A stretch of 64,000 nt of DNA from Candidatus Poseidoniaceae archaeon (GCA_949373075.1 CASIBX010000005.1:5873-69872), one strand, 5' to 3'; shown: positions 3,632-44,423, counted from the first letter of the stretch. Notes: a model not told the origin generated them from the sequence alone. A program made the numbers and translations.

Positions 3632-3641
3632 GTCATTCTTC
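3623..3641. terminator. Perfect 9+1+9 inverted repeat spanning both convergent stop codons (possible bidirectional terminator hairpin)
   Basis: The sequence is gaagaaTGA g TCAttcttc. The two arms encode the Glu-Glu-stop ends of the + and - strand genes. The stem is AT-rich (3 GC in 9 bp), so any structure would be weak. Confidence 0.25.
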
Positions 3642-4274
3642 TTCTGATTCGAAGGACTCAACTACTTCCATCAGATCTGAATCATCCGATGCAATTTCTT
3701 CCCCTTGCTCTTGGAGATATTCTTTCGCTGGTATGTCCTTAAATGGATTGTTGCCATCCTCAATCAAACATAAAATCCTCCAACGAGGAGCCCAAGACAA
3801 ATGTATGTAAAATGGCCCTGGAATCATCAGTAAACCCCATGAAAGATATTGGGTGTAATCGTTAGATGCCAACAAATCTGTATGAATTAGGGTGAAAAGA
3901 GTGAAGCCAATGAAAGGCATTGGGTAGAGCAACTTCCTGTTTACCGACATCGGCATACGTTTTGTAAATGCATTGATTAAACGACTGAACATACCCAGGA
4001 AAGCTGTAGCAAACATCAGTAAACTGGCATGGAGTATCCATAATGGGAGCCAAAACTCTTCAGTCATGTAGTATGGTAAAATCAATGCGAGAGATACCAA
4101 AAGGCCGTAAAATGCTCCAATATTAGATGGATGCGAAAGCCAAAGTGGAAGATTGGAAAAGCGCTTAGAAAGCCCTCCTCCAGAAACCAATTCGTGTTGG
4201 GATTCAGTAAGCGTAGAAGTTCGCTCATCCCAGGCAACATCTTCGCCCATAGCCTGCATGGTGATGAATTGCAC
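3633..4274 (-). CDS. Hypothetical membrane protein with acidic C-terminal tail
   Basis: 213-aa ORF with about 4 hydrophobic helices and the C-terminus ...SDDSDLMEVVESFESEEE. It is convergent with the previous gene, with only 1 nt between the stop codons. Confidence 0.5.
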   Translation of the reverse strand: MQFITMQAMGEDVAWDERTSTLTESQHELVSGGGLSKRFSNLPLWLSHPSNIGAFYGLLVSLALILPYYMTEEFWLPLWILHASLLMFATAFLGMFSRLINAFTKRMPMSVNRKLLYPMPFIGFTLFTLIHTDLLASNDYTQYLSWGLLMIPGPFYIHLSWAPRWRILCLIEDGNNPFKDIPAKEYLQEQGEEIASDDSDLMEVVESFESEEE

Positions 4275-4410: not shown

Positions 4411-4929
4411 TCACGTTCTCATCGCATCATCAAACTCATCTTTCGATTCATTTATTGCGTTGTTTAATGAAATCGCTTGATTGATGATGGCGAGTTGTTT
4501 TGATAATGATTTTAGATTTTTGTTAGTATCCCATATCGATAAGATTGAATGTTCCCCATCCTGCTTATGGATGAGAATACCACTTACAGGGTCCTTCACT
4601 ATTTTCAGACGATGTATCCCTGGGTCAATCCATTCATCAGTAAATCTAACCATTATCTCTGAGTTATCTACTGCACCTGCTTCCATAAAGGGATGATTGA
4701 GGTTCACCGCTAAGGGTATGGATGAGATTCCATTAAATCTTAGGAATGCAAAAAATGAAAATACCAGACAGATTAGTGCTAAAAATATCAACTCAAAGTA
4801 AAAGATGCTACAAACTAATGAGACACAAGTTAGAATCGAGAATACCAGTATCTGCTGTTTGTTAGAGTGATTGGCTTCTACAGAAACTGGGGTTTTGGAA
4901 AAATGAATCAGCCCTTTCGGCTCGTCCAT
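4411..4929 (-). CDS. Hypothetical membrane protein
   Basis: 172-aa ORF with two adjacent hydrophobic helices (ILVFSILTCVSLVCSIFYF / LIFLALICLVFSFFAFL) followed by a soluble domain. I recognise no family. Confidence 0.45.
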   Translation of the reverse strand: MDEPKGLIHFSKTPVSVEANHSNKQQILVFSILTCVSLVCSIFYFELIFLALICLVFSFFAFLRFNGISSIPLAVNLNHPFMEAGAVDNSEIMVRFTDEWIDPGIHRLKIVKDPVSGILIHKQDGEHSILSIWDTNKNLKSLSKQLAIINQAISLNNAINESKDEFDDAMRT

Positions 4930-4970
4930 ACCTTCGCCAAACGCAAGAAGGACATGAAACCCTCGTCACA

Positions 4971-6713
4971 ATGCTAATACTACCCCCATCATTCAAGAAG
5001 GGTGGAATTACCAACCACCCCGTAGGGGTGTCTATGGTCGAGTTGCCACAAGGTAATATCATTGAAGAAAGGCGCGGAGGCGCCGGCATTCTTGCGACCT
5101 TGGTTAATGAGATGATCAAGATAGGCACTGATGGCTACATCAGATGCGAAAGAACGCCTACTGAGGCTATGCCGAGGGTTGGCCAAGTAGTGGTCAGCAA
5201 CGGCACAGTAGCTGCTGCCATTCATGAAAGTGATGCCATATTGGAATCTGTTGACGCCCTTATTGAAATCGAATCGGACTCAATAGAATTAGATTGTATC
5301 TTACAATTGATTGAAGATGTAGATACTTACAGGATTTTAGACTTACACCCCAATGCTAGATTGAATATCGATAATCCAGAAGAGAGCCGTTCATCGAAAT
5401 GGTGGGATGATGTCAGCAATACCACATCGGGATGGACTAAGGCTAGCAGATTACCAAGCATTGAATCATCAGTAGAGGCTCCCGAATTCATTCAAGCAAA
5501 AGCCGCTGCCATGGTACAGCGGCAAGTCATTGGCGGCAAATATCTCAAACCCGGCAGTGTTTATTCCAATGAGAGTGATGAACTGTTCACTTTAGCTTCG
5601 AATCTGAAAAACCACGGCAGGCCATTACTGGTAATCAGTCGAAGAAACCGAGAAGATTTGGTAGTGAATTACAATTTGCCCACAGAAGATTGCCTATGGT
5701 TATCACAAAAGGAGACTGAAGGAGTACAATTTGTGGATATCGATGCAATAAAAGGCACAGTGTATGGGTTCCTAGAAGGTAATTTGCGCGCTGTATTATT
5801 GCTCGATGGCTTAGAGTACTTGGCTAATATTTGTGGGGCAAAAGAAGTCATTGAGATGGTTCGTGAACTTGCAGATAGAATGAGGTTTGAAGATGACTGC
5901 CTCCTAATCTCTTGTGATAGAAAGGCTTGGAGCGATTCTGATGCAGCGCAAATTACGCGTGCAGCACCTTACCTCGATACAGAAATTATCGAAGCATGGA
6001 ATAGCGACCCTGAATACATACTAGACCACCCACTAATGGCGCCTCCAACTGAAGATGAATTGCTTAGATTAGCAGAATACTTGCAAGCAAACACTCCTGA
6101 AACATTCGAAAAACCAGAAATTATCGAACTGCCGGCTAAGGCAATCGAGTCGGAAGAAATACTCATCGAGGTAGTCGAAGAGGAAATCGTCTTCACTGAA
6201 GACGAAGAAGAGGTAGTTGAGGAGGAAGAGATTTTGGTAGAAATTTCTAAAGGTCCACGAACTCCTCAAACTGTGAAGAGAAGGAGATCAAAACATCCTC
6301 AAATCATGAGTGCAAGGGCCGCTAAGAATGCAGGTTTAGCAGCGGCAAAAGAAGGCACAATTGATGCTGAAATTCCAACTAATTCCAATATTCCAAAAAC
6401 GGCAATTGGCCAAGGCAGAGAAGGTAAACTTCCAAGTATACCAACAGTCATTCGAAATGAACTCAGTGATGCAGTTCGACAAGAGGTCACTCAAAGGGTA
6501 AGTAAACTGCCAGATACTAAATTAGCACCTAAGATTGATGCTGCAGCGAAAGAGCATGATACTCGTAAAGAAGCGATTAGCCCAGTTGCCGCTAGAGGAA
6601 TTAAAGTTCAAAGGAACGTTTCAAAGCGTTCGCAAGCATCTAGTGTTCCACAAAGAAAAATCGACCTTGAAAAAGAGTTAGATTCTTGGAAATTTAAGGA
6701 GGGAGATTCGTGA
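4971..6713 (+). CDS. DUF835-type domain protein with PATAN/DUF4388-like N-terminus and long charged low-complexity tail
   Basis: The central region matches the archaeal DUF835 pattern as I recall it: GRPLLVISRRNREDLVVNYNLPTEDCLWLSQ...AVLLLDGLEYLANICGAKEVIEMVRELADRM...CLLISCD. The N-terminus (GYIRCER...GQVVVSNGTVAAAIHE...ESVDALIEI) resembles PATAN-like domains. The true start may be M22 at 5034. Confidence 0.6.
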   Translation: MLILPPSFKKGGITNHPVGVSMVELPQGNIIEERRGGAGILATLVNEMIKIGTDGYIRCERTPTEAMPRVGQVVVSNGTVAAAIHESDAILESVDALIEIESDSIELDCILQLIEDVDTYRILDLHPNARLNIDNPEESRSSKWWDDVSNTTSGWTKASRLPSIESSVEAPEFIQAKAAAMVQRQVIGGKYLKPGSVYSNESDELFTLASNLKNHGRPLLVISRRNREDLVVNYNLPTEDCLWLSQKETEGVQFVDIDAIKGTVYGFLEGNLRAVLLLDGLEYLANICGAKEVIEMVRELADRMRFEDDCLLISCDRKAWSDSDAAQITRAAPYLDTEIIEAWNSDPEYILDHPLMAPPTEDELLRLAEYLQANTPETFEKPEIIELPAKAIESEEILIEVVEEEIVFTEDEEEVVEEEEILVEISKGPRTPQTVKRRRSKHPQIMSARAAKNAGLAAAKEGTIDAEIPTNSNIPKTAIGQGREGKLPSIPTVIRNELSDAVRQEVTQRVSKLPDTKLAPKIDAAAKEHDTRKEAISPVAARGIKVQRNVSKRSQASSVPQRKIDLEKELDSWKFKEGDS

Positions 6714-8458
6714 GCACCTCGCATCAAGAAAAATTACAACTTGCGCTTGCAAACGCTCGAACTGCGTTGGGTAAAGGTGCTATTGAGGGCAGGCCGGCTC
6801 TTTCAAAATTGAATAGATTGAGGGGGGTGGAATCTGTAAGTGACACCCGTGGTGGAGATTTAATTACCCGAACCAGAGTTAAAACACGACCTGTATTCGA
6901 CATGGTTGCAGATGAAATACTCGGTGAAACTGCTCCTTGGACCCCAAGTATTGACCTCGAAGATGGCGATAGCAGTTTAGCACAAATTGCTGCAAGAAGA
7001 ATTAATCAAATGAGAGAAAAGCAGGTTACTGAAGAAATAAGTGAAGACCTTCTTGGAGACTCTGTCGGAGTTCTGAAGGACGGACGTCCGATTTGGGCAG
7101 AAGTTTTAGATTCACAACGAGGTTACTCGATCAATGCTACCGATTATGGTTTGAAAGATTTATCGTTTAGACCAAAGTGGCCACCTATTCAGAATATGTC
7201 TGAGCACAACACATGGAAATCATGGCATGTTATCGAAGAAAATAGTAGAGCATCCATGGCTTGTGAAAAAGTAATTGCCAAACCGGGAATTACGATGAAT
7301 CCATTACTGATACTAGGCGAAAGTGGCAGTGGTAAGTCTCACATTTTGAGTGCTGCAACTCAAGCGATGATCAGGAGACAGGATGGGAATGTACACTTGT
7401 TATCCACCACTGCAATGCGGGGCTGGGAATCTTTACCAGATGGATGGGAAGAGGCGGTTGCACATGCTAATCTAATCGCTATTGACGACTTACACCTCGC
7501 AGAAGAGAGAATTGCGACAGAGATTGGCCTGATGATTGACTATGCATTGAATTTAGGCGTTCAAGTGATTGCCACTTCAAGAATGGATTCCAATGAATGG
7601 CAAGCAAGAAGGTTGTGGGAGGTGATGCGTTCTGCAACTAGCATTTGGTTACGAAAGCCGAGTGCTTCGTCCCTCATGACACATTTACGTAGAGAAGCGA
7701 GTGGAAGAGCTCTTTTGCTTGATGATAGCATGCTTGCAAGGATAGTAAAGCATGGAAATGGTGATTGGAGAAGCACAGATGCTGCATTTGAGAAAGTCGC
7801 ATTGGGCATCGAATCAGGCGAAAAAATCATTTCTAGTGAAGATGTAACTCACATCTTGGAAGATGTTCCAATACCAATAACTGAACTGGAAAGGTTCGCT
7901 GAAAGAGAAGACTTGGAAGATGTTGCATCCAGAGTAATCAGTAAGACACTGGACCATGTTTACACAGGGACTGACATTGGAGGTGTTGAGATCCATGCAC
8001 CTCTACCAATAATGAGTGACGACTGGGAAGTTCCCGAACTAACAATACAAGAGAAAGACGAACTTCATCAATTGTTAATCAGTGAAAACCTGACACCACA
8101 CGTCACAACTACACTTACGCTTGATGAGAGAGAAGAGTTCTTAGTTCAATCAGAGCAGAAAATCAGAGGCTTAGATAACGTAAGGGCTCGTGAAACGGCC
8201 GCTAGCATCAGTAACATAACAGATGAGATGTTTGAAGAAATGAGCCGTGAACATTTGGACAAATCAAATCAGTTAGCTGAACTTGAAAGCGAAATGATGA
8301 GATTATCTGAAATTAGCAAGGATGCTAGTGTTGAAGAATTGATAGAAATCGCCGATAGGGTAGGCGATATTGAATCATTGTTGGGAGAGATTTCAGGTGA
8401 AGCACATTATGCTAGTTTGACACCCATTACTGTCCTCACACCAACGGGTGAAGAATAA
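6710..8458 (+). CDS. DnaA/Hda-like AAA+ ATPase (DnaA domain III homolog without the domain IV HTH), acidic coiled-coil C-terminus
   Basis: Collinear with DnaA domain III. NPLLILGESGSGKSHILSA is Walker A (compare NPLFLYGGTGLGKTHLLHA). NLIAIDDLHL is Walker B. IGLMIDYALNLGVQVIATSR compares with [21 protein letters not shown]. The lid region is LLLDDSMLARIVKHGNGDWRSTDAAFEKVAL. The GTG start overlaps the upstream stop (GTGA). Confidence 0.7.
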   Translation: MSTSHQEKLQLALANARTALGKGAIEGRPALSKLNRLRGVESVSDTRGGDLITRTRVKTRPVFDMVADEILGETAPWTPSIDLEDGDSSLAQIAARRINQMREKQVTEEISEDLLGDSVGVLKDGRPIWAEVLDSQRGYSINATDYGLKDLSFRPKWPPIQNMSEHNTWKSWHVIEENSRASMACEKVIAKPGITMNPLLILGESGSGKSHILSAATQAMIRRQDGNVHLLSTTAMRGWESLPDGWEEAVAHANLIAIDDLHLAEERIATEIGLMIDYALNLGVQVIATSRMDSNEWQARRLWEVMRSATSIWLRKPSASSLMTHLRREASGRALLLDDSMLARIVKHGNGDWRSTDAAFEKVALGIESGEKIISSEDVTHILEDVPIPITELERFAEREDLEDVASRVISKTLDHVYTGTDIGGVEIHAPLPIMSDDWEVPELTIQEKDELHQLLISENLTPHVTTTLTLDEREEFLVQSEQKIRGLDNVRARETAASISNITDEMFEEMSREHLDKSNQLAELESEMMRLSEISKDASVEELIEIADRVGDIESLLGEISGEAHYASLTPITVLTPTGEE

Positions 8459-8922
8459 TGAGCAAGCCTTGGTGGATGGCAGGAGTGCCTTTCACTTGCC
8501 AGTCCAATTGTGGAAAATGCTGTGATGAGCCAGGTGGAATTGTTTACCTTAGGCCAGAGGATGCCAAAATAATGGCATCTCACCACGAAATGGATGTAGA
8601 AGAGTGGCTGGAAAGAGATGGCCGTCAAACGCTCGATGGAAGATGGGTTCTCAAATCTGATCCGGTTACCGAGGTTTGCATTTATTTGGATGGAGAGAAG
8701 AAATGTACAACTTATCAGGCTCGACCTGCACAATGCCAATCATATCCATTCTGGGCCGAAAATGTACGCTCAGACCGATCTTGGAAAAAAACAGTTAGCG
8801 AATGTCCAGGACTAGAATCTGAAGAGGCCTTTATCATCGATGGTGACACTATTCGGAGGAAAATTCTGGAAGATAGAGATGCATCCAGAGGATTCAGAGA
8901 ATGGCCTCCTAAAAGAATGTGA
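8458..8922 (+). CDS. YkgJ-family zinc/iron-chelating protein (CxxCxxCC, UPF0153)
   Basis: CQSNCGKCCDEPGG, then VCIYLDGEKKCTTYQARPAQCQSYPFW, which is the typical bipartite Cys pattern of this family. The start ATG overlaps the upstream TAA (TAATG). Confidence 0.75.
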   Translation: MSKPWWMAGVPFTCQSNCGKCCDEPGGIVYLRPEDAKIMASHHEMDVEEWLERDGRQTLDGRWVLKSDPVTEVCIYLDGEKKCTTYQARPAQCQSYPFWAENVRSDRSWKKTVSECPGLESEEAFIIDGDTIRRKILEDRDASRGFREWPPKRM

Positions 8923-33440: not shown

Positions 33441-34286
33441 ATGGTCGACATCAATACCGCTATGGCCGCCGCCGCTACAGAGCGACGCAATCGAGGCACT
33501 GGTGACAAGGAGAGGAAGAAGAACCGCTCTGGTGCAGACATGGGAATTGAAGCATTTGACCCTGTCAAACATGTAGAGAAAGAAAAGGCAGATACATTTT
33601 CAATGTGGTTAGTAATTACTTTTGCAGCATCCATGGCATTGATTATGAGATATGTAGCCATGCCCAGCGCTCAAGACAATGCAGACATGCTTTGGTTTAT
33701 TCCAATGTTAGCAATATTTTTGCTACCTTCGGTTCACAGAGCAATACTGTCGGAAAAACTTGTAGAGCACTACACCAAGGGCACCTGGTTCAAAGCATCA
33801 TTCCTACATATTTTCACTTGGCTTGCGATAACTTTCCTACTGACTAATGCACCTTTTGCAGATATTGTTGCACCACAAGTGGATGATGGATGGGGCATGA
33901 TTTCTGTTAATGAAGAAGGTGAGTATGATTATGTCAAATCAAGTAAAATAAATCTCACTGAAGGATATACTGGCGAGCATTACCTCGTCCTCGCATTCTC
34001 AGATAACAAGGATGCATCAGACTCTAAATATACGATTTCACTGAAGGACAGTGAACTTCCATTGAACAATTCTTGGGAAGATGTCGAGGCGATTGATGAC
34101 TCTGCATTAGACTCCGTAAGAAAGCATGATGATATCGACCATCCTTTCGCAATCCGAGTACCAGATAACTTAGACGCTGGAGAATATACAATGCTAATCA
34201 AAGTCGTTGAGAATGGAGACCCATGGAAAAACACCCGAACAGTAAAACTAGATTTCACCATCAAAGAAATTGAAGTTGAAGACTAA
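33441..34286 (+). CDS. Hypothetical membrane protein with basic N-terminus and acidic C-terminal ectodomain
   Basis: 281-aa ORF with 4 hydrophobic helices followed by a beta-rich acidic domain. The start is uncertain, with an alternative M34 at 33540. Confidence 0.5.
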   Translation: MVDINTAMAAAATERRNRGTGDKERKKNRSGADMGIEAFDPVKHVEKEKADTFSMWLVITFAASMALIMRYVAMPSAQDNADMLWFIPMLAIFLLPSVHRAILSEKLVEHYTKGTWFKASFLHIFTWLAITFLLTNAPFADIVAPQVDDGWGMISVNEEGEYDYVKSSKINLTEGYTGEHYLVLAFSDNKDASDSKYTISLKDSELPLNNSWEDVEAIDDSALDSVRKHDDIDHPFAIRVPDNLDAGEYTMLIKVVENGDPWKNTRTVKLDFTIKEIEVED

Positions 34287-35251
34287 CCTAGCAATTGAGA
34301 AAGCCTTGCTGTAAGAGCATCGAGTTGAATTGCTTCCCCTCCGCCTTCAACCAATCTGAAATCAATTTCAGCCATCAATTCAGTAAGCTCAAGTTTCTGA
34401 ATCTCTGAAAGGAAATCTGCACCGTATAATTCACGATGAAGCTGATTTACAAAATCAGTACCTGCAAGACCATAACGATCTAACAATTCGCGCAATCTCC
34501 TTCTTGCTGCATGAAACCCATCTTGCCTGCATGCCATCAAATATTGATGCAATGATTCAGGAGGAGCGGTTGCGCTGGTCTCATAAATCAAATTGCGTGT
34601 TACATCTTTTTCTAGAGCAGCAGCAACTTGGAGAGCAGTGATGGCTTTCCTCAAATCGCCTTGAGAAATTCTGACCAATGCTTCAGCAGCCTCATCATCT
34701 AAGCCAATACCTTCCAATTTCGCAACAGCCTTGACCTGATCTAAGACATCAACATCCGCTAAAGGCCTAAATCTGAAAACTGCACATCGACTTTGAATTG
34801 GTTCGATGATTTTACTTGAATAATTGCATGAAAGAATGAAACGACATGTTTGAGCATACTGTTCCATAATTCTTCGCAAGGCACCTTGTGCATCATGTGT
34901 TAATGCATCTGCCTCATCCAAGAAAATAATTTTGAAATCTGCACCGCCATAAGGAGCGGTTCTTGCGAATTGCTTTACTTTGGTTCGAATGCTCTCGAGT
35001 TTACGCTCATCACTAGCATTCATTTCAAGCAAGTTATTTCTGAAATCTGTACCGAATACATCTCTGGTCAAAGCCATGGCAGCAGTTGTTTTACCAGTGC
35101 CTGGCGGTCCAGCAAACAGCAAGTGAGGGAAGTCTGCAATCTTAGCATAAGATGCCAATCTTTGAACTACAGAAGCCTGACCACGGATATCTCCAACCGT
35201 TCGAGGACGGTGACGCTCTACCCAAAGTTCACTCATGCGAATCAAGGTCAT
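34283..35251 (-). CDS. rfcS: Replication factor C small subunit
   Basis: WVERHRP, FAGPPGTGKTT (Walker A), FLDEADALT (Walker B/DEAD), ILSCNYSSKIIEPIQSRC (SRC motif). The 322-aa length is typical. Confidence 0.92.
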   Translation of the reverse strand: MTLIRMSELWVERHRPRTVGDIRGQASVVQRLASYAKIADFPHLLFAGPPGTGKTTAAMALTRDVFGTDFRNNLLEMNASDERKLESIRTKVKQFARTAPYGGADFKIIFLDEADALTHDAQGALRRIMEQYAQTCRFILSCNYSSKIIEPIQSRCAVFRFRPLADVDVLDQVKAVAKLEGIGLDDEAAEALVRISQGDLRKAITALQVAAALEKDVTRNLIYETSATAPPESLHQYLMACRQDGFHAARRRLRELLDRYGLAGTDFVNQLHRELYGADFLSEIQKLELTELMAEIDFRLVEGGGEAIQLDALTARLSQLLG

Positions 35252-35303
35252 AATAGGACGAACTTGAACCTTCGCTTTGCTAGAGTTCAGACCTCATTTC
35301 TCC

Positions 35304-35322
35304 GGCCACCCTACGGGTGGCC
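35304..35322. promoter_or_regulatory. GC-rich perfect hairpin in the divergent rfcS / giant-gene intergenic region
   Basis: GGCCACCC-tac-GGGTGGCC is an 8-bp stem (7 GC pairs) with a 3-nt loop. It lies 48 nt upstream of the ATG at 35370 and just before an AAACTATA TATA-like element at 35333-35340. Confidence 0.25.
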
Positions 35323-35369
35323 AGCCGAAAGGAAACTATACCACCTCTGTCAATGGTTACCCGAGCCCA

Positions 35370-38300
35370 ATGTCAACGAACACCCGCGACCGCCGACGAA
35401 TCGCAAGTTCACTCTTGCTCGCTATGATGTTTTTATTTGCTGATTTGGCACTTCCACAAGCAGTGCCCGACTGGACAAATGAGGTACTAGAAGATGAAAC
35501 CACCGTATTTCAAACTGTATCCACATTTAGTCCATCGAAGGATACAGCTATCGATTCGTCAAATCCTATGTCGAACTATGGCTCTGATGAAACTGTAAAT
35601 TTGGGTTCAACATTCACAGGAGAATCAAAAATCTTGATTTCATTCAACAATACTGTTCCGGGAACTGACTTAGTTACAGATGCTGTATTGAAATTAACCT
35701 GTGGAGTCGACCCCTTAGATTTAGGAGCCATAAATATTTACAACTCACGCCTCCTAAAATCTTGGGATGAAGGAAATTCGACATGGGAAGACGCTGCCAA
35801 TGGAGTTTCATGGGAATTACCAGGGGCGGAAGGAACTTCTGATTATGACTCTTGGGAACCACCATTCTACGGATATGCAAACAATACCTTTTCAATTAAC
35901 GTAACCGCTGTTGTTCAGGACGCTGTAGCAAACTCACGCAGTACAATCGAACTTATCCTTGCAGCAACGGGAACACAGTATGAATGCCAGATGTCTGAGT
36001 CTCCAAACAGTGGTGGCCTACCGTATCTAGAGATATCACACCAAACTGGAAGCCATACTAACGGAGGCTCTCTAACACCTAACTTTGTAGAGGATGGAGC
36101 TGCTTTGATGGATGACAGTCAATTCGTTCTTAGTGCGGCGGCTAATCCTGAATTGTCATGGGAAGGGCTAACTGGAAGTCATGCACAAATCCAACTTTCA
36201 ATGTCAGAAAATTTCTTGTCAAGTGACGACGACAATTGGTATTACAATACCAAAGATAACTCTTCTATATTCACACTTAATTCGGGTGATGGAGAAATGA
36301 CTGTACCTACGGGAGATGAACTTTCGAACTCTTCGACTATGCATTACAGAATGCGTTCAATAGACAGTAACGAAACCATTGGCTCTTGGGTCACAGGATA
36401 TTTCCACCTACCTGGCCATAGTATCACGATGAGCGGCAATTATGGTACGCTATCCGTTGGGTTTGATGATCTAGGGTTAACTGAAAATACAATCGAAGAT
36501 ACCTTCATCGATTCAAATGACAAGAACACCAATCTGGGCAGTGAAGAGAACTTTACTGTTGGTTCATCATCGAGTTCAGACCAGTATGGGTTAATGCGCC
36601 TGAACCTAGATGACCTCGGATTGCATCATAATTCCTCTATTATTTCGGCTAACATAGTGATGACAAGAGACTCTTTCAGCAGTTCAGCAGATGTTAGTCT
36701 ACATGTGATGGACGGTGAAGATTGGACTGAAGATAGCGTTACTTGGCGAAAGTATGATGGTACCAACAACTGGAATGATGGCGGAAGAGTTCCATCGATG
36801 TCTGTAGGTAATTTCACTGGTTCACAATCCAGTTCAACTATTGAAGTTGACATCGCAGTGGCCTTACAACATTGGATCGATGAGAATAATGACGCTATAC
36901 AAGCGGGGTTGTCGCCTGAAAGTTCACTTGATTTGCTCATGGTAGCCTCTACCTTTGGAATCGAAGAGTTGAGCACACAATCTGTGAAAATTTGTGCAAC
37001 AGAATCATTAACTTGCAATCAACCAAAAATCGAGATAACCTATGATTGGGATAGTAACGGACCTCCTGAGATCCCAACACATGTCGCTCCACTTGACGGG
37101 CATGGCGTGTGGGATTTAATCGGAGACAACCTAACTGGAGATACCAATCCAACACTTAGTTGGAATGGTTCGATCGTTTGGAGTGGCGACATGATCATGC
37201 AGGTTGCAAAAGACCCAGAGTACCGCGAAATCATACATTCGTTTAACACAGGAGATTCCTCAACATCGTTTGCTTCATCAGATGGAAATTGGACTGTCAG
37301 CAGTACAGATACACTTCAAGATGGTGTGATGTACCATTGGAGATTAGCACAACAAGACTCCACTACTAACCATCACTCTTGGTGGGAAACATCTTCATTC
37401 CTTGTATCTGGATTAGAATCAGAGTACATTCAGGATGATGAACATCGCTTACGATTATCTCATGGTAACGCAACCACTGCAGGGGATTCTCCTGACTGTG
37501 GCGACACATACATCGACAGTGGAACACCAAACAGCAACTACAACGGCGAAGATGATATGCAAGTATCATACAACACATTCCCATCTGAAACCTCGATTAT
37601 CCTCGGTTGTGATTTGACAAGTCATCTACTTCCATCTGGCTATGCTGTGCAAACTGCAACACTGAAAATGCGACTATCTGACTACCCTATTGGAAGTCCA
37701 AAGATTGGAGCATGGGAAAGTCGACAGCACAATTGGACTGAAGAAGGAGCAACTTGGCAATCTTATGACGGAAATTCTGCAAACTCTTGGGGCACCTCGG
37801 GTGCTAAAGGCTGGGAGCGTGCTGGATTATTGGATTCAATAACACTTGGCGGTACTTATTCTGCAGGAGATTGGGTAGAGTTCGATATTACCCTCGCTGT
37901 GCAAAATGCAATGCGAGAAGATAGAGCAGTAGATTTGGTTCTGGGTATTGTTGGAGTAGGTAGTGGCGTTGATAGAGACGCTTTGTTCTATCCAAATAGT
38001 GCCTCCTCTTCGAACCGTCCTGAAATATCTTTCATCTATGTACCTGGTTCAGATGCTTTACCTTCAGAACCGGTACCACAATCACCTCTGAATGGATCCT
38101 GGTCAGTCGAAAACGGAATTAATCCAGCGCCTGAACAATCCCCTCAATTATCATGGAATTTCTCATCGACAGCTGTTACAATAGGTGGATGGTCAATCGA
38201 ATTAGACACATCTCCTAATTTTGACTCGGCCGACTTATTGATGGCTACCAGTTGGACGGACTCTGGATTTGACATTACGAACCAAACATACGACATTGCT

Positions 38301-41300
38301 AGCCCACTTGATACAGGTGAAACTTGGCATTGGAGGGTAAGAGCTACCAGTTCAACCAATCAAATTGGAAACTGGTCGAATTCGTTCCACTTTTTACTCC
38401 CAGACATTACGACTTGGAGTATCGATTCAAATTCAGCGGCAGTTGAATTGCACCACAGAGAAGCAATGCCTTCCCTGAACATACCTAATTTCATCGACTC
38501 TTGGGTTGCAGATTCAGGAATCGGCTCCACTGCAGACCAATCTTCATCCTCTTCGATGAAGGTAGGCACAGATAGTAACGGAGCAAATGCCACAGGGTTA
38601 CTAAAGATACCTTTGACAGAGTTACCTAATCCACAAAACGCACACATTGCGAATGCTGTACTGAACTTGTATGCCGAATTCGGTTCAGATACTGGCAACT
38701 CAGTATCGATTCATCCAGCACTTGTTGCTTGGAATACAAGTGCTAATGGCACGACCTATGATGGAGTGAATAACTGGTCCTCACCAGGTGCCATGGGTAC
38801 TGGCGACAGAGGATTGTTAGTTGATGTTCAAGATAGTGGGTCTGCTACTTGGATGAGCTTTGATGTAACTGAATTAGTTCAAGCGGCCTTTGCAAATGGA
38901 GATTCACACGTATCTTTGTTAGTTGTAGGATCTGTGGATGAGGGACAGACAACGTTCACCACTACCGAAGGAACCAGTAGCGATAGGCCATGGATAAACA
39001 TGACTTGGGCCACAGGAAATGCCTCATCTCCTGAAAGCGCAGGTAGCAATTCAAACCCAACGCCCAATCAAATAATCTGGGACACATCGACACACGCATT
39101 ACTTCCTGGAAGCACCCCGAGTCTTACATGGACCCATTCTAATCCATCGAATGTAGATGATTGGAGAGTATTCATCTGGAATGATTATTCAGATGAAAGA
39201 GCAGGTTGGACTGTATATGATAGCCGAGATTCTTCTAATGGATGGGATATTGCCAACCTAACTTGGACTTCGCCTTCGAGTCTTTCAGCCGGAGATTCAT
39301 ACGAATGGTTTGTCCAACCGATTACCAATGACATCCTTGGTTCTCGTGGCACTGACACTATATTCCACATACCAGCAAGTACTGGTGCATCCATCAATTC
39401 CACAGATGCTTACATCACTTTACAAGAAGGCCAAATTGTAGAGGCATTAAATTATCCAGCCATATTCATGGATACTTATCTTGATTCAGGTAATGCAAAT
39501 TCCGCCTATGAAGGGGGAACTGAACTGATAATCGGACGTTCAAACTATACTACTGCACAGAACCATTACACAGAGTCGATGATAATGGTGGATTGGTCGA
39601 CACTACCTATTCCAAGTTCTCACGAATTCTTTGATTCGGAATTGACACTGCACAAGGTTAGCGGTGGAGATATAAATCAAGAATCAGTTAGAATCGCAGT
39701 TTGTGAAGTACAAGATACCTGGAATCAAAGTGCTACTATGAATGGACCAACAGGAGCTAATTCGACTTGGACCAATCCTAAATGCGACATTCCGTTTGAA
39801 ATAAAAACTATGGATTATCAAGATAACACCATCGATTTAGACATCACATATGCTGTCCAACATGCTCATGCTGCAGGTTTAGACAAAGTGAATTTATTGT
39901 TCAAAATCGTTAGTGATACCGATGAAGAGTGGCACTTCGCAAGCAGTGACTATACCGATGATGAAACAAAGCGTCCTGAAGTCAAACTTGAATGGAGAAC
40001 TGGTACTCAATGGCTGCCATCACCTGCAATGAGCCTGCTACCTGCCGATGGTTCAACGATTTGGAATGAAACTTCATCTAGGCCTCGTGGTGCTGATGAT
40101 GTAACCATGAATTGGACGGGTGTTGAATCTAATGAAACACGCTGGGTTATGCAATCCTCAACTTCTGCTCATTTCACAAATGAAAATGAGACTTGGTTGA
40201 TGGACCTTACAGATAATAATACGTTCAACGGAACATGGGACTATTCCAGCCTCGCTTACACAACCAGCGATAATATCGAATGGGGAGATTATTGGATATA
40301 CTGGAGAGTTAGGGCTGAGCAAGACCACCGCTTAGGAACATGGTCCAGTGTCAACTCATTCCGAGTGCCAGGAATTCTTGGAAGTGACGACGGCGCTGGA
40401 AACAATACTATCGTACTGTATGATGGTTCTGTATTCAACCAAACCTCATCTCTGCCAGGCGTTCCAGATGCAACAATCGATTCCAGTCGTTCCAATAATT
40501 CTCTAGGCAATAATGGCGAATTAGACTTGGGGATCTCTGCAGGCGGCTCAGGAGAATCTATGATATTACTAACATTTGATTTGTCAGAATTACCATTCCC
40601 TTCTGCTATGACTCCTACAAACGTTCTGCTATCACTATACAGGTATGATGTCAATGGAACATCATCTCAAACTGTAAGTGTTCATGCCTGTGATACATTC
40701 AATGAAAGGAGTGTAACTTGGAATACAGCACCTTCGTGTTCGAGTACTGAAGTCACTCGCACTACATTGCTAATATTCCCTCCAGATGGTTGGCAGGAAT
40801 GGGACCTTACATCATTGGCTCAATCTAATATTGCAAATGGAAATAACACTCTGTCCATTATGCTAAAATCAGTTGGAACCCCGACTTCAGGGCACTCATT
40901 CTATGATAATTCATACAATGATTCGATTAAGCCTAAATTGATTTTAGAATATGTTGACAACGTTGACGGAGTTATACCTCCTTCTCAACCAGTACTAAAC
41001 AATCCAATCGATGGAGCTATTCTGTATAACACAACTAATTGGGTATTAGAATCTCTTGACAAACCTGAATTAACTTGGAATTCTGTAACAAATGCAACAG
41101 GATATGTCGTGACTATTGCAAGCACAGGTGGCCAATTAAAGTACAAATCTTGGGAAGATAGTGAGATTAACGGAACTACATTCACTTTCAGCCAGGACTT
41201 GGTAGAAGGTAGCGTTTACAGTTGGTGGGTACAAGCCATAAATGGATCTATACCTGGACCTTCTTCAAGTCGAAGGTCGTTCGCAATTGGTTCTCCTGTC

Positions 41301-44300
41301 GATAACACGTACAATGACGACCATACGTGGACATATAATTTCCAAACCGGCAATGAAGTTGCTGATTTAGGTCACACCAATATCAGAGACTCATACATTG
41401 GTAGTGGATTCGCAAACCAAAATCATGGTTCTGAATCAATGATGGTAGGAACAAATTGTGAAGGCGCTAATACAGAATGTCGCATGATTATCGCTCTGGA
41501 TAACGACCAAGTTCCTCTACCACCTGGTGCTAAAATCCATTCCGCATCAATCAAATTAAGTACAGAATCTCCTTTGGTTGGTAATTTAACTTTGAACGTT
41601 CATCGTCTGCTAACAAATTCATGGACGCAATCTGGTTCGACTTGGAATAACTCAGCTGGTGGAACTCCATGGTCTGCAGCAGGAATGACTGCGGGAGTTG
41701 AATATGAAGCATCACCAATTTATTCGAAAACCATTAATCCGGCTGTGAGTGAAGTTTGGTTAGAATTAGGACATTCTGGAATGTTGATAGATGGAGACCA
41801 TGCTTGGATAGTAATTGGAACTTCAACTGTAGGAGCACCAGGCTGGATTGAATTCTTTTCAAGTGAAAGTTCTCTGGATTATAGGCCTACGATTCTCATA
41901 AATTACACAGATGTCCATTCTGCATCAGTATCACCTACAGGGACTACTACTGATGCTGACACGCCAGTACAATTCTCACATATCCTGAACGATGCTGCAG
42001 GAGGAAATGTAGCAGAAGACGTAGTATGGTCTACGACTGATGGCACAATTAACACGACTGGAATGTTTACTCCTAAACAAATAGGTACGCACAGCATTAC
42101 AGCATGCTTTGGAGTTATTTGCGCTACTGAGCAAATCACTGTAACGCCGGGGCTGCCGGTAACTCTGATTGTTGAAGATGTAGAGGAAACAATAACCGCC
42201 GATGATACATTTACTGTAATAGCAATGGTACATGACCAACATGGAAACATTGTTCCAGGCCAGACTATCTCGTACACTCCATCTAATGGAACTATGAGTG
42301 GTAGCACATACTATCCATACAGTTCTGGCAACCAGGTTGTAAGCGTATTCTGGAATGGTCAAAGCATTGCTGTGAATATTGAAGTGGTTGGCGGAATACC
42401 AACCCATTACGTTACAACAGGATGTGAAAGCGTGGTCAATGCAGGAGAAACTTGTCAACTAAATTGGACATTGCACGACCAATTTGGCAACATGCTAGAT
42501 CTAGCAGTTGGTGGCGGAATCACATGGACTACTGGAGGCGGTGTTTTCACTGAAGCCAACGGAACTTACTACGCAACCACCGTAGGAGATTACAACATTA
42601 CAATGCAATCAACTGGCGGAATAAGCCATGTAATCCCTATTACAGTGGATCATGGAGAGATGGTGAGCCTAGAGATTATCGCATCTGAAACCTTCGTTAC
42701 AGCGGATGACACTGTGTGGTTGAACACTACAAGAATTGACATAATGGGTAACAGGTTGTCCGTAGAGTTACCACTTGCAAACTGGACGGTAAGTGATGGA
42801 CTATTGGTAGAAGGCTTACCTGCAGAGTGGCATGCTCAGCGCCGTGGTTCTAAGACGATTACCGGAAGTTATGCTGGAATGGAAAGTAGTGTCGTCATCC
42901 AAGTAGTTGAAGGAGCGATTACTGGATTAGTATTGGTTATCGACTCTGAAGATTCAACTAACTCATTGCAAGAGATTACTGCTGATGATGAGATTACTAT
43001 CAAGGTCAAAGCTCATGATTCAGATGGAAACCGTTGGACTGAGAATGTCGCTTGGACTATTGAGCACATTCAATTTAGTGACCAAAGCGTACTGCAAGAG
43101 ATGACTTATGGAAGCACGACAATGTTTGTACCTGTGTTCTCATCTGATTCTACTTACACACTACGTGCCACTTATACAGACTCAAACATCACGCTTGATG
43201 TCACACTAGACATATCAGTGGCGCACGGATACTTGGTAAATGTAGCATTAGAACTCCCTAATTCATTGTCACAGAATATTGATGCTGACAATAATCTGCA
43301 GTTCCTTCCTAAGTTAACAGACAGTGATGGAAATATAATCGATTCATCCATTGTGTCTTACTCTTTGAAGGACTTAACTTCAAGAAATGTGACTAACATT
43401 ACCGATATCATCGTTGGAAACGGTGGTGTTTGGGAAGCTAGTACTGTTGGTGATTGGGAGATCACCGCATGGGCAATGTCTGGAAATGGCTACATGATCA
43501 ATGAGACTGTTTCGATTACAGTCCAGCATGGAGATGCAGTTAGTGTTGCAATCGATGTGATTGCAAATACGGCTAAGGCAGGAGACCAGTATAGTCTAAC
43601 TATTACTGGAACTGATTCTGATGGAAACACGTTTTTGGAGAGTGTACTATGGACGCAAAACAACAAGGCTGTACCATCTTCCACAATCTATGGAAATTCA
43701 GGTGAATACAACTGGAATGCCACAACTGCAGGTGATCACACCTTCAAATTCCGCTCACCGAGCGGGGCCGAGAATGAATGGACTGTGACTGTATCTGCAC
43801 ACCAGACAGTCTCAAGAATTGAATTGACCATTGCTGATGAAACAGTGCAGCAATTAGAGACCTTTGAAATCGAAGTGCATACTTTCGATGCGTGGGAAAA
43901 TGAAATCCCTGTCCCTCCTGAAACTCAAGTTGAATTAACTGGTCGCATGACTGCAGAAGCCGGAGAGAATGGATTCTGGACAATCACTACATTGGATGAT
44001 GAGAAACAAACTGTAACCATCAAGGTACACAGTGTCGAGGCATCTAGTACTATTGTTGTTGAAGGAAATTTCATGGGCTTCTTTGAATCCGGTGGAACTC
44101 TTTACTATGCAGGAGGAATTTTGGCTATTCTAGTTGTGATTGTTCTGTTAGTGGTTATCGTTATGGTATTCCGTTCCGGAAATTCCGAATATGAGGATGA
44201 AGATGAGGATGATGACGGTTACTACCCGGAAGAGAAATCTGAACAGAGTCCTGCGGCTGTAGGCCCTGGACCTAGCGGCCCTCCACAGGTGAAAACTGGC

Positions 44301-44423
44301 AGAGAAGATTGGATGTCAGACTATCGTGTTGAAGACGACGGTACTGAATGGGCTGAAGATGGTGAGGCATCTTGGTGGTTCCGTGATGCTGGAACATCTG
44401 AATGGCAAGAGTGGACCGATTAA
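35370..44423 (+). CDS. Giant (3017-aa) surface protein: 7x [DNRLRE-like + FN3-like] super-repeat, ~8 Ig-like (Big_2-like) domains, TM anchor, acidic/Trp-rich tail
   Basis: The start is taken at MSTNTRDRRRIASSLLLAMMFLFADLALPQA, a signal that may be Tat-type. D(T/S)xIDS...N.G motifs begin at nt 35541, 36498, 37503, 38496, 39471, 40466 and 41388. Interleaved modules end in W/Y-x-W-R-V. Ig-like repeats delimited by ITVxxG run from about 41920 to 44050. The TM helix is at about 44098-44172. Confidence 0.85.
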   Translation: MSTNTRDRRRIASSLLLAMMFLFADLALPQAVPDWTNEVLEDETTVFQTVSTFSPSKDTAIDSSNPMSNYGSDETVNLGSTFTGESKILISFNNTVPGTDLVTDAVLKLTCGVDPLDLGAINIYNSRLLKSWDEGNSTWEDAANGVSWELPGAEGTSDYDSWEPPFYGYANNTFSINVTAVVQDAVANSRSTIELILAATGTQYECQMSESPNSGGLPYLEISHQTGSHTNGGSLTPNFVEDGAALMDDSQFVLSAAANPELSWEGLTGSHAQIQLSMSENFLSSDDDNWYYNTKDNSSIFTLNSGDGEMTVPTGDELSNSSTMHYRMRSIDSNETIGSWVTGYFHLPGHSITMSGNYGTLSVGFDDLGLTENTIEDTFIDSNDKNTNLGSEENFTVGSSSSSDQYGLMRLNLDDLGLHHNSSIISANIVMTRDSFSSSADVSLHVMDGEDWTEDSVTWRKYDGTNNWNDGGRVPSMSVGNFTGSQSSSTIEVDIAVALQHWIDENNDAIQAGLSPESSLDLLMVASTFGIEELSTQSVKICATESLTCNQPKIEITYDWDSNGPPEIPTHVAPLDGHGVWDLIGDNLTGDTNPTLSWNGSIVWSGDMIMQVAKDPEYREIIHSFNTGDSSTSFASSDGNWTVSSTDTLQDGVMYHWRLAQQDSTTNHHSWWETSSFLVSGLESEYIQDDEHRLRLSHGNATTAGDSPDCGDTYIDSGTPNSNYNGEDDMQVSYNTFPSETSIILGCDLTSHLLPSGYAVQTATLKMRLSDYPIGSPKIGAWESRQHNWTEEGATWQSYDGNSANSWGTSGAKGWERAGLLDSITLGGTYSAGDWVEFDITLAVQNAMREDRAVDLVLGIVGVGSGVDRDALFYPNSASSSNRPEISFIYVPGSDALPSEPVPQSPLNGSWSVENGINPAPEQSPQLSWNFSSTAVTIGGWSIELDTSPNFDSADLLMATSWTDSGFDITNQTYDIASPLDTGETWHWRVRATSSTNQIGNWSNSFHFLLPDITTWSIDSNSAAVELHHREAMPSLNIPNFIDSWVADSGIGSTADQSSSSSMKVGTDSNGANATGLLKIPLTELPNPQNAHIANAVLNLYAEFGSDTGNSVSIHPALVAWNTSANGTTYDGVNNWSSPGAMGTGDRGLLVDVQDSGSATWMSFDVTELVQAAFANGDSHVSLLVVGSVDEGQTTFTTTEGTSSDRPWINMTWATGNASSPESAGSNSNPTPNQIIWDTSTHALLPGSTPSLTWTHSNPSNVDDWRVFIWNDYSDERAGWTVYDSRDSSNGWDIANLTWTSPSSLSAGDSYEWFVQPITNDILGSRGTDTIFHIPASTGASINSTDAYITLQEGQIVEALNYPAIFMDTYLDSGNANSAYEGGTELIIGRSNYTTAQNHYTESMIMVDWSTLPIPSSHEFFDSELTLHKVSGGDINQESVRIAVCEVQDTWNQSATMNGPTGANSTWTNPKCDIPFEIKTMDYQDNTIDLDITYAVQHAHAAGLDKVNLLFKIVSDTDEEWHFASSDYTDDETKRPEVKLEWRTGTQWLPSPAMSLLPADGSTIWNETSSRPRGADDVTMNWTGVESNETRWVMQSSTSAHFTNENETWLMDLTDNNTFNGTWDYSSLAYTTSDNIEWGDYWIYWRVRAEQDHRLGTWSSVNSFRVPGILGSDDGAGNNTIVLYDGSVFNQTSSLPGVPDATIDSSRSNNSLGNNGELDLGISAGGSGESMILLTFDLSELPFPSAMTPTNVLLSLYRYDVNGTSSQTVSVHACDTFNERSVTWNTAPSCSSTEVTRTTLLIFPPDGWQEWDLTSLAQSNIANGNNTLSIMLKSVGTPTSGHSFYDNSYNDSIKPKLILEYVDNVDGVIPPSQPVLNNPIDGAILYNTTNWVLESLDKPELTWNSVTNATGYVVTIASTGGQLKYKSWEDSEINGTTFTFSQDLVEGSVYSWWVQAINGSIPGPSSSRRSFAIGSPVDNTYNDDHTWTYNFQTGNEVADLGHTNIRDSYIGSGFANQNHGSESMMVGTNCEGANTECRMIIALDNDQVPLPPGAKIHSASIKLSTESPLVGNLTLNVHRLLTNSWTQSGSTWNNSAGGTPWSAAGMTAGVEYEASPIYSKTINPAVSEVWLELGHSGMLIDGDHAWIVIGTSTVGAPGWIEFFSSESSLDYRPTILINYTDVHSASVSPTGTTTDADTPVQFSHILNDAAGGNVAEDVVWSTTDGTINTTGMFTPKQIGTHSITACFGVICATEQITVTPGLPVTLIVEDVEETITADDTFTVIAMVHDQHGNIVPGQTISYTPSNGTMSGSTYYPYSSGNQVVSVFWNGQSIAVNIEVVGGIPTHYVTTGCESVVNAGETCQLNWTLHDQFGNMLDLAVGGGITWTTGGGVFTEANGTYYATTVGDYNITMQSTGGISHVIPITVDHGEMVSLEIIASETFVTADDTVWLNTTRIDIMGNRLSVELPLANWTVSDGLLVEGLPAEWHAQRRGSKTITGSYAGMESSVVIQVVEGAITGLVLVIDSEDSTNSLQEITADDEITIKVKAHDSDGNRWTENVAWTIEHIQFSDQSVLQEMTYGSTTMFVPVFSSDSTYTLRATYTDSNITLDVTLDISVAHGYLVNVALELPNSLSQNIDADNNLQFLPKLTDSDGNIIDSSIVSYSLKDLTSRNVTNITDIIVGNGGVWEASTVGDWEITAWAMSGNGYMINETVSITVQHGDAVSVAIDVIANTAKAGDQYSLTITGTDSDGNTFLESVLWTQNNKAVPSSTIYGNSGEYNWNATTAGDHTFKFRSPSGAENEWTVTVSAHQTVSRIELTIADETVQQLETFEIEVHTFDAWENEIPVPPETQVELTGRMTAEAGENGFWTITTLDDEKQTVTIKVHSVEASSTIVVEGNFMGFFESGGTLYYAGGILAILVVIVLLVVIVMVFRSGNSEYEDEDEDDDGYYPEEKSEQSPAAVGPGPSGPPQVKTGREDWMSDYRVEDDGTEWAEDGEASWWFRDAGTSEWQEWTD

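Follow-up and report, generated by a model that had tools for sequence, protein, structure and literature searches.

A DnaA-lineage AAA+ protein is translationally coupled to a DUF835 protein in archaea of the order Poseidoniales

The DnaA lineage of AAA+ proteins is considered bacterial; archaea rely on Orc1/Cdc6. A locus from a Candidatus Poseidoniaceae archaeon (GCA_949373075.1, CASIBX010000005.1:5873-69872) raises the question of what a DnaA-like AAA+ protein does in an archaeal cell, and why it is encoded together with a protein containing the domain DUF835. The locus is part of a 64,000-nucleotide (64-kb) stretch of DNA that is called the window here. It consists of three consecutive genes on the plus strand, which overlap at both junctions, in the sequences GTGA and TAATG, exactly as described in an initial annotation of the window. 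The first gene encodes the DUF835 protein (protein A), the second the AAA+ protein (protein B, or the ATPase), and the third a YkgJ-type CxxCxxCC protein. The answer proposed here, to which a probability of roughly one half is assigned, is that proteins A and B form a stoichiometric scaffold or regulatory complex, which would be an order-specific, vertically inherited, and co-translated two-protein module, and not a replication initiator. The literature that was searched contains no description of the ATPase family or of the DUF835–ATPase pair.

Protein B belongs to the DnaA/Hda clade, as the initial annotation proposed, and not to Orc1/Cdc6 or to generic AAA+ proteins. The motifs that the annotation cited (NPLLILGESGSGKSHILSA, IAIDDLHL, VQVIATSR, and a peptide from the lid) are all present in the translation and align to the Walker A, Walker B, sensor I, and box VIII/sensor II regions of DnaA. 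The Pfam family Bac_DnaA (PF00308) matches protein B of the window with 32.4 bits relative to a cut-off of 23, covering only positions 4–72 of the 162 in the profile, and it matches 32/32 family members with a best E-value of 4.4e-18. The NCBIfam DnaA match spans residues 161–386, that is, all of domain III (E 2e-13), and is followed by Hda (8.5e-12) and by ZapE, IstB, and RFC near 1e-3. The scores against the NCBIfam equivalogs are far under the cut-offs, with 50.2 instead of 343.9 bits for DnaA (TIGR00362) and 45.1 instead of 194.8 bits for Hda (TIGR03420). A search of the PDB with the single sequence is uninformative (E ~0.5). The profile of the 32-member family matches DnaA of B. subtilis (8btg, 6e-30), T. 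maritima (1.6e-26), and Aquifex (5e-19), and is much nearer to DnaA proper than to Hda (~1e-5) or DnaC/DnaI (1e-4 to 1e-2). The 15 best Foldseek matches in the PDB of an AlphaFold model of protein B, calculated from a 32-sequence alignment, are all DnaA domain III or Hda, with RuvB and RFC coming next. The top match is domain III of B. subtilis DnaA (8bv3), with a template modelling (TM) score of 0.81 and a root-mean-square deviation of 2.9 Å over 234 columns; Hda (5x06, 3bos) reaches TM scores of 0.73–0.78. Both comparisons that the initial annotation suggested for the ATPase, by profile and by fold, thus put DnaA domain III first. Orc1/Cdc6 chains are missing from the top 60 matches by profile and from the top 50 by fold, the Orc/Cdc6-specific Pfam family matches 0/32 members, and the winged-helix domain is absent from them. 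Orc1/Cdc6 and the DnaA lineage are members of the same broad initiator clade of AAA+ proteins.

The nearest relatives of protein B are less sharply defined. When 1.84 billion cluster representatives are scanned exhaustively with HMMER, only 275 proteins match at E ≤1e-3 and 35 at E ≤1e-30. Outside the full-length family, every match is a Bac_DnaA protein, and the single outgroup member that carries an organism name belongs to candidate division WOR-3; a further profile search for homologues returns mostly the same close relatives. In a neighbour-joining tree, considered together with per-domain scores, the family is equidistant (~2.3–2.4) from canonical DnaA, Hda-like, and tandem DnaA-like proteins, and RFC is at a distance of 3.26. 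The placement in an AAA+ tree, which the initial annotation had recommended, therefore sets protein B far from RFC, but it does not provide a sister group: only 36 of 100 bootstrap replicates recover the ATPase family as monophyletic, and its neighbouring group is unstable. Bacterial ATPases with tandem AAA+ domains were considered as the closest relatives and rejected, since neither the per-domain scores nor the bootstrapped tree indicate a specific affinity; their high rank in the exhaustive search is because the scores of two domains were summed. An origin from a defence system or a phage was also rejected, because PADLOC provides only P-loop-limited matches (E >1e-3), PHROGs provides none for the pair, and the locus is core and syntenic rather than variable. 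Presumably, protein B is derived from an ancient bacterial dnaA- or hda-like gene.

The part of protein B that corresponds to DnaA is restricted to domain III and the lid. DnaA domain III (PF00308; 8bv3, 8btg, 2z4r, 1l8q) is its best match in both sequence and structure, and the Walker A, Walker B, sensor I, box VII, sensor II, and lid elements are collinear. By contrast, domains I, II, and IV are missing. The domain IV family Bac_DnaA_C matches 0/32 members, and the 160 N-terminal residues contain no known domain from Pfam or NCBIfam and thus no match to DnaA domain I. A helix at the N-terminus is conserved in this region, as are the motifs RPxFDxIADxVLG, DGRPxW, and WPP. The middle region, which replaces domain IV, contains the motifs GG(I/V)E(L/I)H..LP...DD(W/Y)xxPEL and LTPxxPxxLxxDERDxxL. 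It is followed by a coiled-coil hairpin, formed in the AlphaFold2 (AF2) model by helices 487–536 and 541–561 with a predicted local distance difference test (pLDDT) score of 84–91. Residues 391–582 are acidic, with an isoelectric point (pI) of 4.3. The absence of domain IV and the acidic coiled-coil end were both correctly recognized in the initial annotation. However, its description of charged low-complexity tails in both proteins does not hold for the 190 C-terminal residues of protein B, which are not of low complexity and include the hairpin. The consensus of the C-terminus (positions 8444–8455) is a hydrophobic residue, any residue, and GEEE, and 49 of 76 species-level ATPase sequences, on which the residue statistics here are based, end in EEE. 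From its sequence, the GEEE motif looks like a docking peptide for some reader.

Protein B also differs from DnaA within the AAA+ core. B. subtilis DnaA has ~6 more residues at the initiator-specific-motif site between strands β2 and β3, which in protein B is modelled as two very short helices (residues 233–236 and 246–251). Sensor II is R354, and the box VII region holds R301 and R307. The ungapped profile alignment positions V305 at the site of the finger residue R285 of E. coli DnaA, so that the canonical arginine is replaced, and the conserved R307 is two residues further on. The equivalent of E. coli R281 is R301, which is kept in 68/76 sequences. Hda resembles protein B in that it is composed of the DnaA-lineage domain III and lid, lacks domain IV, and shares the ENxxA/NPL hallmark motifs, the Walker B aspartates, and the sensor II arginine. 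However, Hda has ~230–250 residues, whereas the 582-residue protein B carries unrelated extensions of 160 residues at the N-terminus and of 190 residues, with the coiled coil, at the C-terminus. Protein B further differs from Hda in its archaeal host, in its obligate partner with an inactivated KaiC (iKaiC) domain, and in the loss of the P-loop in many lineages. A PCNA-interacting protein (PIP) box or a bacterial clamp-binding motif was considered for both proteins and rejected, since it is not conserved in either of them (2/76 and 0/76).

The nucleotide-binding site of protein B has decayed repeatedly. The protein encoded in the window has a canonical P-loop (GESGSGKS), Walker B motif (IAIDD), and sensor II. 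Across the 76 species, the residue at the position of the Walker A lysine (K209) is Lys in 47, Cys in 18, Arg in 6, Gly in 2, Ile in 2, and Val in 1. The lysine has therefore been lost in 29/76 species, through at least five independent changes, and the GxxG glycine (G206) is present in 34/76. In the clade of 18 species with the lysine-to-cysteine change, the whole P-loop is degenerate, and the sensor I threonine is replaced by glycine in 18/18. The same 18 species all retain R301 and R307, and 16 of them retain R354. Other positions of the domain are kept in the family: N197–P198 is invariant, the Walker B aspartate pair, N178, and W353 are each conserved in 75/76 sequences, sensor II R354 in 64/76, and R307 in 62/76. 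Therefore, ATP turnover by protein B is not the conserved core of its function. The ATP-driven switch envisaged in the initial annotation is compatible with the protein from the window, but cannot be extended to the family as a whole. As judged from residue conservation, the preserved surface of the ATPase points to a structural or docking role, and possibly to one exerted in trans.

Protein A has two folded units in its AlphaFold model, the N-terminal domain (residues ~28–125) and the DUF835 domain (residues ~190–375). The DUF835 assignment in the initial annotation stands: Pfam PF05763 matches residues 202–330 with 62.7 bits relative to a cut-off of 33.1, and the match is found in 33/33 family members. 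The second part of that assignment, a PATAN-like N-terminal domain, lacks significant sequence support, as detailed below. The best structural matches of the DUF835 domain are RecA (2zrd), FlaH/ArlH (4yds, ranked second), the CI domain of KaiC, and PH0250, with E-values of 4e-4 to 3e-3, and the KaiC-like domain also dominates the Foldseek output for the full-length model. No GK[ST] is present at the Walker A position in the alignment of the DUF835 domains of the family. Galperin et al. (2018, PMC5847659) classed DUF835 as an inactivated KaiC that archaeal response regulators use as an output domain, and the sequence and fold of the DUF835 domain of protein A identify it as an inactivated KaiC/RecA domain in agreement with this class. 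Like the response regulators in which DUF835 is joined to a receiver (REC) domain (PMC5847659), protein A has a DUF835 domain that scores above the cut-off, has the RecA/KaiC fold without a P-loop, and is presumed to be a protein–protein interaction module. Unlike in these regulators, the N-terminal domain of protein A is not a receiver, the protein has a 200-residue disordered charged tail, and its gene is translationally coupled to that of a DnaA-lineage AAA+ protein, with no link to KaiC-type ATPases. The tail includes the short conserved motifs KGPRxAQxVKRRK, LPKTAIG, SPxAARG, and RSQASSxPQ...ELxSWK, and is still constrained, with a ratio of nonsynonymous to synonymous substitution rates (dN/dS) of 0.11–0.20; the value for the whole of protein A, calculated relative to an orthologue with 89% identity, is 0.06. 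Both proteins A and B are soluble-looking.

The two families are restricted to Poseidoniales, where they always occur together in one locus that is syntenic and vertically inherited. This conclusion is based on the small number of matches in the exhaustive scan, on the labels of the loci retrieved from GTDB, and on the gene order around distant homologues. A scan of 185,579 species genomes, performed with a six-sequence alignment and dependent on the peptide pattern [IVL]DxALNLGV[QH], gives 80 loci, which are labelled Poseidoniales, Poseidoniaceae, Thermoplasmatota, or generic Euryarchaeota/"Methanobacteriota", with the exception of two contigs in bacterial bins. The exceptions, L008 (NZFX01000059.1, 'Phycisphaerae bacterium') and L040 (CALDQY010000035.1, 'Rhodobiaceae bacterium'), encode ATPases with 74% and 32% identity to that of the window, and are almost certainly mis-binned archaeal DNA, because they carry the complete Poseidoniales synteny. 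The distant relatives P0260, P0301, and P0313, with sequence identities of 21–28%, keep the same gene order. Intact full-length ATPase reading frames are present in ~75 species. In L005 (4977-6753) and L062 (4998-7047) the ATPase is split into two open reading frames (ORFs), which is probably due to a frameshift or an assembly error rather than to a true pseudogene.

The DUF835 gene precedes the ATPase gene in every locus in which the contig extends far enough, and the junction is a 4-nucleotide overlap in 67 of 71 species loci, down to ~27% identity. In the window, a strong Shine-Dalgarno-like sequence located within the first gene also speaks for coupling of the pair. The pairing noted in the initial annotation is therefore conserved, with translational coupling, in the related genomes; together with the placement of protein B among DnaA and Hda, it leaves the core of that annotation standing. 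The junction between the ATPase and CxxCxxCC genes is a 4-nucleotide overlap in 62 of 72 loci. However, the CxxCxxCC gene is inverted in five loci from one divergent clade (L074–L078), and was not detected at its usual position in three others (L016, L056, and L057). Therefore, it is not an obligatory member of the operon.

Conserved adjacency can also result from a frozen genome order. The trio is part of a block that is syntenic across the order and contains genes for an aminotransferase, two small membrane proteins encoded on the opposite strand, citrate synthase, GDPD, and an ATG22-like transporter. Since the whole ~10-kb block is syntenic, adjacency alone is weak evidence of linkage. The three genes could be mere neighbours that act independently, in which case their overlaps would reflect genome compaction. 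The inclusion of unrelated metabolic genes in the order-wide block agrees with this explanation, as does a CxxCxxCC gene that can be inverted or missing. By contrast, the persistence of the 4-nucleotide overlap of the pair at low sequence identity, the confinement of both families to one order, and their invariable co-occurrence speak against this explanation. Furthermore, in a mirror-tree test of 38 species, the DUF835–ATPase pair has the highest residual distance correlation of the 21 neighbour pairs (partial r 0.59). Independent action of the three genes is therefore rather unlikely.

The initial annotation described the N-terminal domain of protein A as PATAN-like. The topology in the AF2 model, β-α-β-β-β-β-α-β-α, fits this description, and the alignment with PATAN domains is in the expected register, pairing ILATLV with DVVQLLA, GYIRCER with TGRLALS, and VGQVVVSNGTVAAA with LGAIYFDRGRICFA. 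However, the sequence similarity is not significant. PATAN (PF14332) is not matched at E ≤1 by any of 33 full-length members or at E ≤10 by any of 16 isolated N-terminal domains, and profile searches with the domain of Pfam (E ≤10) and of the PDB sequences give only noise. The alignment to 74 bacterial PATAN domains calculated using hhalign has a score of 16.3 (P 0.05, probability 1%), which is reached by 9 of 100 column shuffles, or by 2 of 100 after the removal of the helical insertion of PATAN. Because the score is not significant, PATAN-like is kept here as a lead, supported by topology and context, and not as a finding.

The context is provided by bacteria. The bacterial relatives of protein B include DnaA-like proteins with two tandem AAA+ domains, mostly without domain IV. 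The gene directly after that of the tandem ATPase encodes a PatA_N (PATAN) protein with tetratricopeptide repeats (TPR) in the loci L089:1774-5213 and L090:1717-4910, the flanking genes of which differ. A metagenome scan that started from the PATAN-TPR protein gives 80 additional loci (L091–L170), and, once the start positions called from the longest ORFs are corrected, a DnaA-like gene is located directly upstream, usually abutting or overlapping, in 73 of the 74 with enough upstream sequence. The hosts of this module include candidate division WOR-3, and many of the loci are from soil metagenomes; the literature that was searched contains no description of it. The bacterial and archaeal gene pairs are alike in that a DnaA-derived ATPase without domain IV is encoded next to a multi-domain adaptor, which in bacteria, too, begins with a small α/β domain with the pattern β-α-β-β-β...α-β. 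The bacterial pairs differ in that they have two AAA+ domains, TPR in place of iKaiC, and the reversed gene order, and there is neither a resolved phylogenetic affinity between the ATPases nor significant homology between the N-terminal domains. By analogy, the PATAN-coupled bacterial ATPases lend indirect support to the PATAN idea for protein A.

In the proposed scaffold or regulatory complex, proteins A and B would be produced in equal amounts and would bind to each other. Protein B has kept only the AAA+ domain III and lid, has lost domain IV, and has acquired a new N-terminal region as well as a C-terminal acidic coiled coil. Its DnaA-like domain would be a nucleotide-binding or nucleotide-sensing, or in many lineages nucleotide-independent, platform for assembly or docking, and neither a motor nor an initiator. 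Protein A would be the adaptor; it is composed of a small α/β N-terminal domain, an inactivated KaiC/RecA domain, and a long disordered tail that is acidic and then basic. Further partners may be recruited by the coiled coil, by the charged tails, and by the adaptor with its iKaiC domain, and the YkgJ-type Cys-cluster protein would be a frequent but dispensable third subunit. The analogies to the iKaiC output domain, to PATAN domains acting on motor ATPases, and to the bacterial PATAN-TPR pairs point to the control of the assembly or activity of another machine, away from the melting of an origin. It is very unlikely that the pair is a replication initiator, because protein B has no domain IV, the initiator-specific-motif region is shortened, the P-loop has decayed, and the intergenic region next to the module, ~100 nucleotides long, leaves no room for an adjoining origin. 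The neighbours of the module are metabolic genes, and no replication, pilus, or archaellum genes are adjacent to it.

Several observations weigh against the proposed complex, which is itself an inference. The canonical motifs in the window copy indicate that ATP hydrolysis may matter in this lineage. The adjacency of the two genes is inseparable from the general synteny of the ~10-kb block, so that the pair is observed in only one genomic context. The test of rate covariation is rough, since the distances are saturated, the 38 species are not independent, and both proteins evolve fast. Finally, the homology of the N-terminal domain to PATAN is statistically unsupported, and the tree shows no specific affinity between the Poseidoniales family and the PATAN-coupled bacterial ATPases.

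A more specific alternative is that the pair regulates cell polarity or a type IV pilus-like machine, such as adhesion pili or the archaellum. In this case, protein A would bind to a motor ATPase of the PilB/ArlI type through its ArlH-like iKaiC domain, its PATAN-like N-terminal domain, or both, and the DnaA-like protein would act as a gate. PATAN functions on its own as an output domain and docks on PilB1, the motor ATPase of the pilus, and on PilC, its platform protein (bioRxiv 10.1101/2021.06.11.447907), and the topology and motif register of the N-terminal domain, together with the bacterial coupling of DnaA-like ATPases to PATAN-TPR proteins, are consistent with such a role. The rank of FlaH/ArlH among the structural matches of the DUF835 domain is also in agreement with it. 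In the ArlH(FlaH)–ArlI system of the archaellum motor, a KaiC-like protein acts by binding to a hexameric ATPase. However, the match to FlaH reflects the general RecA/KaiC fold, and the homology to PATAN is not significant. ArlH binds ATP and is the partner of a PilB-type ATPase, whereas the KaiC-like domain of protein A has no P-loop and its neighbour is a DnaA-type AAA+ protein. There are no pilus or archaellum genes beside the locus. Furthermore, only half of the Thalassarchaeaceae genera have the archaellum operon (PMC6461757), whereas all loci retrieved contain the module, even those with only 21% identity. A role in a pilus-like machine or in polarity is an outside chance, of about the same standing as the independent action of the three genes.

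Control of replication in trans offers another explanation for the domain-III-only architecture. Hda stimulates ATP hydrolysis on DnaA in the regulatory inactivation of DnaA (RIDA). Similarly, the box VII arginines of protein B could act on Orc1/Cdc6 or on another AAA+ protein of the initiator clade, with the iKaiC protein as a cofactor and its basic tail (pI 10.4) as a DNA tether. The retention of R301 and R307, and of the sensor II arginine in all but two species, by the clade with the dead P-loop fits a function in trans or at an interface. By contrast, the canonical finger position is occupied by the hydrophobic V305, with R307 two residues away, the clamp-binding motifs are not conserved, and the score against the Hda equivalog is far too low. 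Proteins A and B evolve roughly five times faster than citrate synthase, which is unusual for core replication control, and there are no adjacent replication genes. An Hda-like role is therefore less probable than either of the preceding explanations. Its full version, an archaeal counterpart of Hda and RIDA in which a bacterial-type AAA+ protein captured by the ancestor of Poseidoniales acts in trans on Orc1/Cdc6 or a related ATPase, while the iKaiC partner and the basic tail provide tethering to chromatin, is slightly more doubtful still.

Both proteins of the pair are under purifying selection, with dN/dS of 0.02–0.07 in the folded parts and 0.11–0.33 in the tails; the whole ATPase has a value of 0.05, its AAA+ core one of 0.03, and its coiled coil one of 0.02. 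The idea that the locus is a functionless, decaying relic of an ancient bacterial dnaA/hda transfer, which the decay of the P-loop in 38% of species and the fast evolution might suggest, is effectively refuted by this selection, and is at odds with the intact ORFs in ~75 species and the many invariant non-catalytic residues.

The features of the locus are listed in Table 1. The ORF of protein A does start at position 4971, as in the initial annotation, but the start codon of the protein is unlikely to be there. The sequence comparisons favour M22, encoded by the ATG at 5034, as the probable true start, because almost all homologues begin at MVELPQG and because codons 1–21 have a synonymous substitution rate (dS) of ~0, as opposed to ~0.9 in the adjoining coding sequence. 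The dN/dS of these codons is 0.4–0.9, and from their dS they behave as conserved non-coding DNA.

Table 1 Features of the DUF835–ATPase locus, in coordinates of the 64-kb window
Feature	Position	Strand	Description
Conserved intergenic region; probable 5' untranslated region and promoter	4930-5033	+	Common to the divergent upstream gene; from a nucleotide alignment of 20 loci
Adaptor gene (protein A), longest ORF	4971-6713	+	580 aa
Perfect palindrome CACCCC-GTA-GGGGTG	5016-5030	+	Includes Shine-Dalgarno-like GGGGTG 4 nt ahead of ATG 5034
Protein A, probable true coding sequence	5034-6713	+	559 aa; begins MVELPQG
Protein A, N-terminal α/β domain, unclassified	5034-5375	+	Residues 22-135; AF2 pLDDT 80-87; dN/dS 0.02
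Protein A, linker	5376-5540	+	Residues 136-190; modelled as disordered; invariant W144, W145, W155, P171-E172
Protein A, DUF835, inactivated KaiC/RecA-like domain (iKaiC)	5541-6095	+	Residues 191-375; no Walker A motif
Protein A, disordered tail	6096-6710	+	Acidic residues 376-425 (pI 4.1), then basic 426-580 (pI 10.4)
Shine-Dalgarno-like AAGGAGGGAG	6696-6705	+	Within the 3' end of the protein A gene, 4 nt ahead of the ATPase GTG
GTGA start/stop overlap	6710-6713	+	DUF835/ATPase junction; read from the sequence
DnaA/Hda-superfamily AAA+ gene (protein B, ATPase)	6710-8458	+	582 aa; without domains I, II, and IV
Protein B, family-specific N-terminal region	6710-7189	+	Residues 1-160; mostly low-confidence/disordered; no known domain
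Protein B, AAA+ core and lid	7190-7879	+	Residues 161-390; equivalent to DnaA domain III; pLDDT 89-95
Walker A, GESGSGKSH	7316-7342	+	In AAA+ core
Walker B, IAIDDLH	7475-7495	+	In AAA+ core
Protein B, middle region replacing domain IV	7880-8167	+	Residues 391-486; short helices
Protein B, acidic antiparallel coiled-coil hairpin and C-terminal tail ending G-E-E	8168-8455	+	Hairpin residues 487-561, pI 4.2
TAATG stop/start overlap	8456-8460	+	ATPase/CxxCxxCC junction; read from the sequence
YkgJ-type CxxCxxCC gene	8458-8922	+	154 aa; usually, not always, operon member

The leader upstream of protein A contains two conserved blocks, 4948–4965 and 4982–5030. The conservation of the intergenic region exceeds that of the synonymous sites of the flanking genes, even where the identity of the ATPase is only 50%, and the core of the palindrome is identical in 17 related loci. 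Neither the palindrome nor the second conserved block has a further copy anywhere in the window. A known RNA family was ruled out, as the leader has no match in Rfam. RNAalifold predicts an invariant hairpin, and because of the invariance there is no covariation to analyse. The palindrome is either an RNA hairpin that masks the ribosome-binding site or a DNA operator.

The CxxCxxCC protein is matched by Pfam PF03692 in residues 14–113 with 44.9 bits relative to a cut-off of 23, carries the N-terminal Cys cluster CQSNCGKCC, and is a putative Zn/Fe-chelating protein. The two small membrane proteins, encoded at 3633–4274 and 4411–4929 on the minus strand and thus divergently from the module, are conserved in position across the order and have no Pfam match. 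Their mutual covariation is the second-highest among the neighbour pairs (partial r 0.55), and they do not co-vary with the DUF835–ATPase pair. The 213-residue membrane protein has a conserved acidic C-terminus (...ESEEE), reminiscent of the GEEE end of the ATPase. The syntenic block of L001, L004, and L087 also includes, a few genes further upstream, a gene for a small TPR protein. Within the window, only one other ORF has a canonical AAA+ P-loop (GPPGTGKT at residue 48). It has 322 residues, is located at 34283–35251 on the minus strand, and probably encodes a small clamp-loader (RFC)-type AAA+ protein; no Orc1/Cdc6-like ORF is seen within the 64 kb. One giant ORF of 3048 residues extends from 35277 to 44423 on the plus strand. 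The segment 58001–64000, with a G+C content of 0.34–0.36 compared to ~0.43 elsewhere in the window, may represent a genomic island, such as a cluster of surface-related genes or of genes acquired horizontally.

The module draws on known superfamilies; its novelty lies in the architecture, in the archaeal host, in the obligate pairing, and in the fact that loss of the P-loop is tolerated. Members of the ATPase family are labelled in databases as "DnaA ATPase domain-containing", "DnaA/Hda family", or "chromosomal replication initiation ATPase DnaA", and the last label is misleading when replication in uncultured archaea is deduced from genomes. If the RIDA-like explanation were true, Poseidoniales would possess a cross-domain hybrid system of replication control. 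The Poseidoniales pair and the bacterial PATAN-TPR pairs indicate that a wider class of non-replicative modules, each composed of a DnaA-like ATPase and an adaptor, may exist. The scaffold of DnaA domain III can be re-used for a role other than initiation, and the function of protein B survives the loss of the P-loop lysine. A DnaA-derived protein has thus been fixed through the whole history of one of the most abundant archaeal orders of the ocean.

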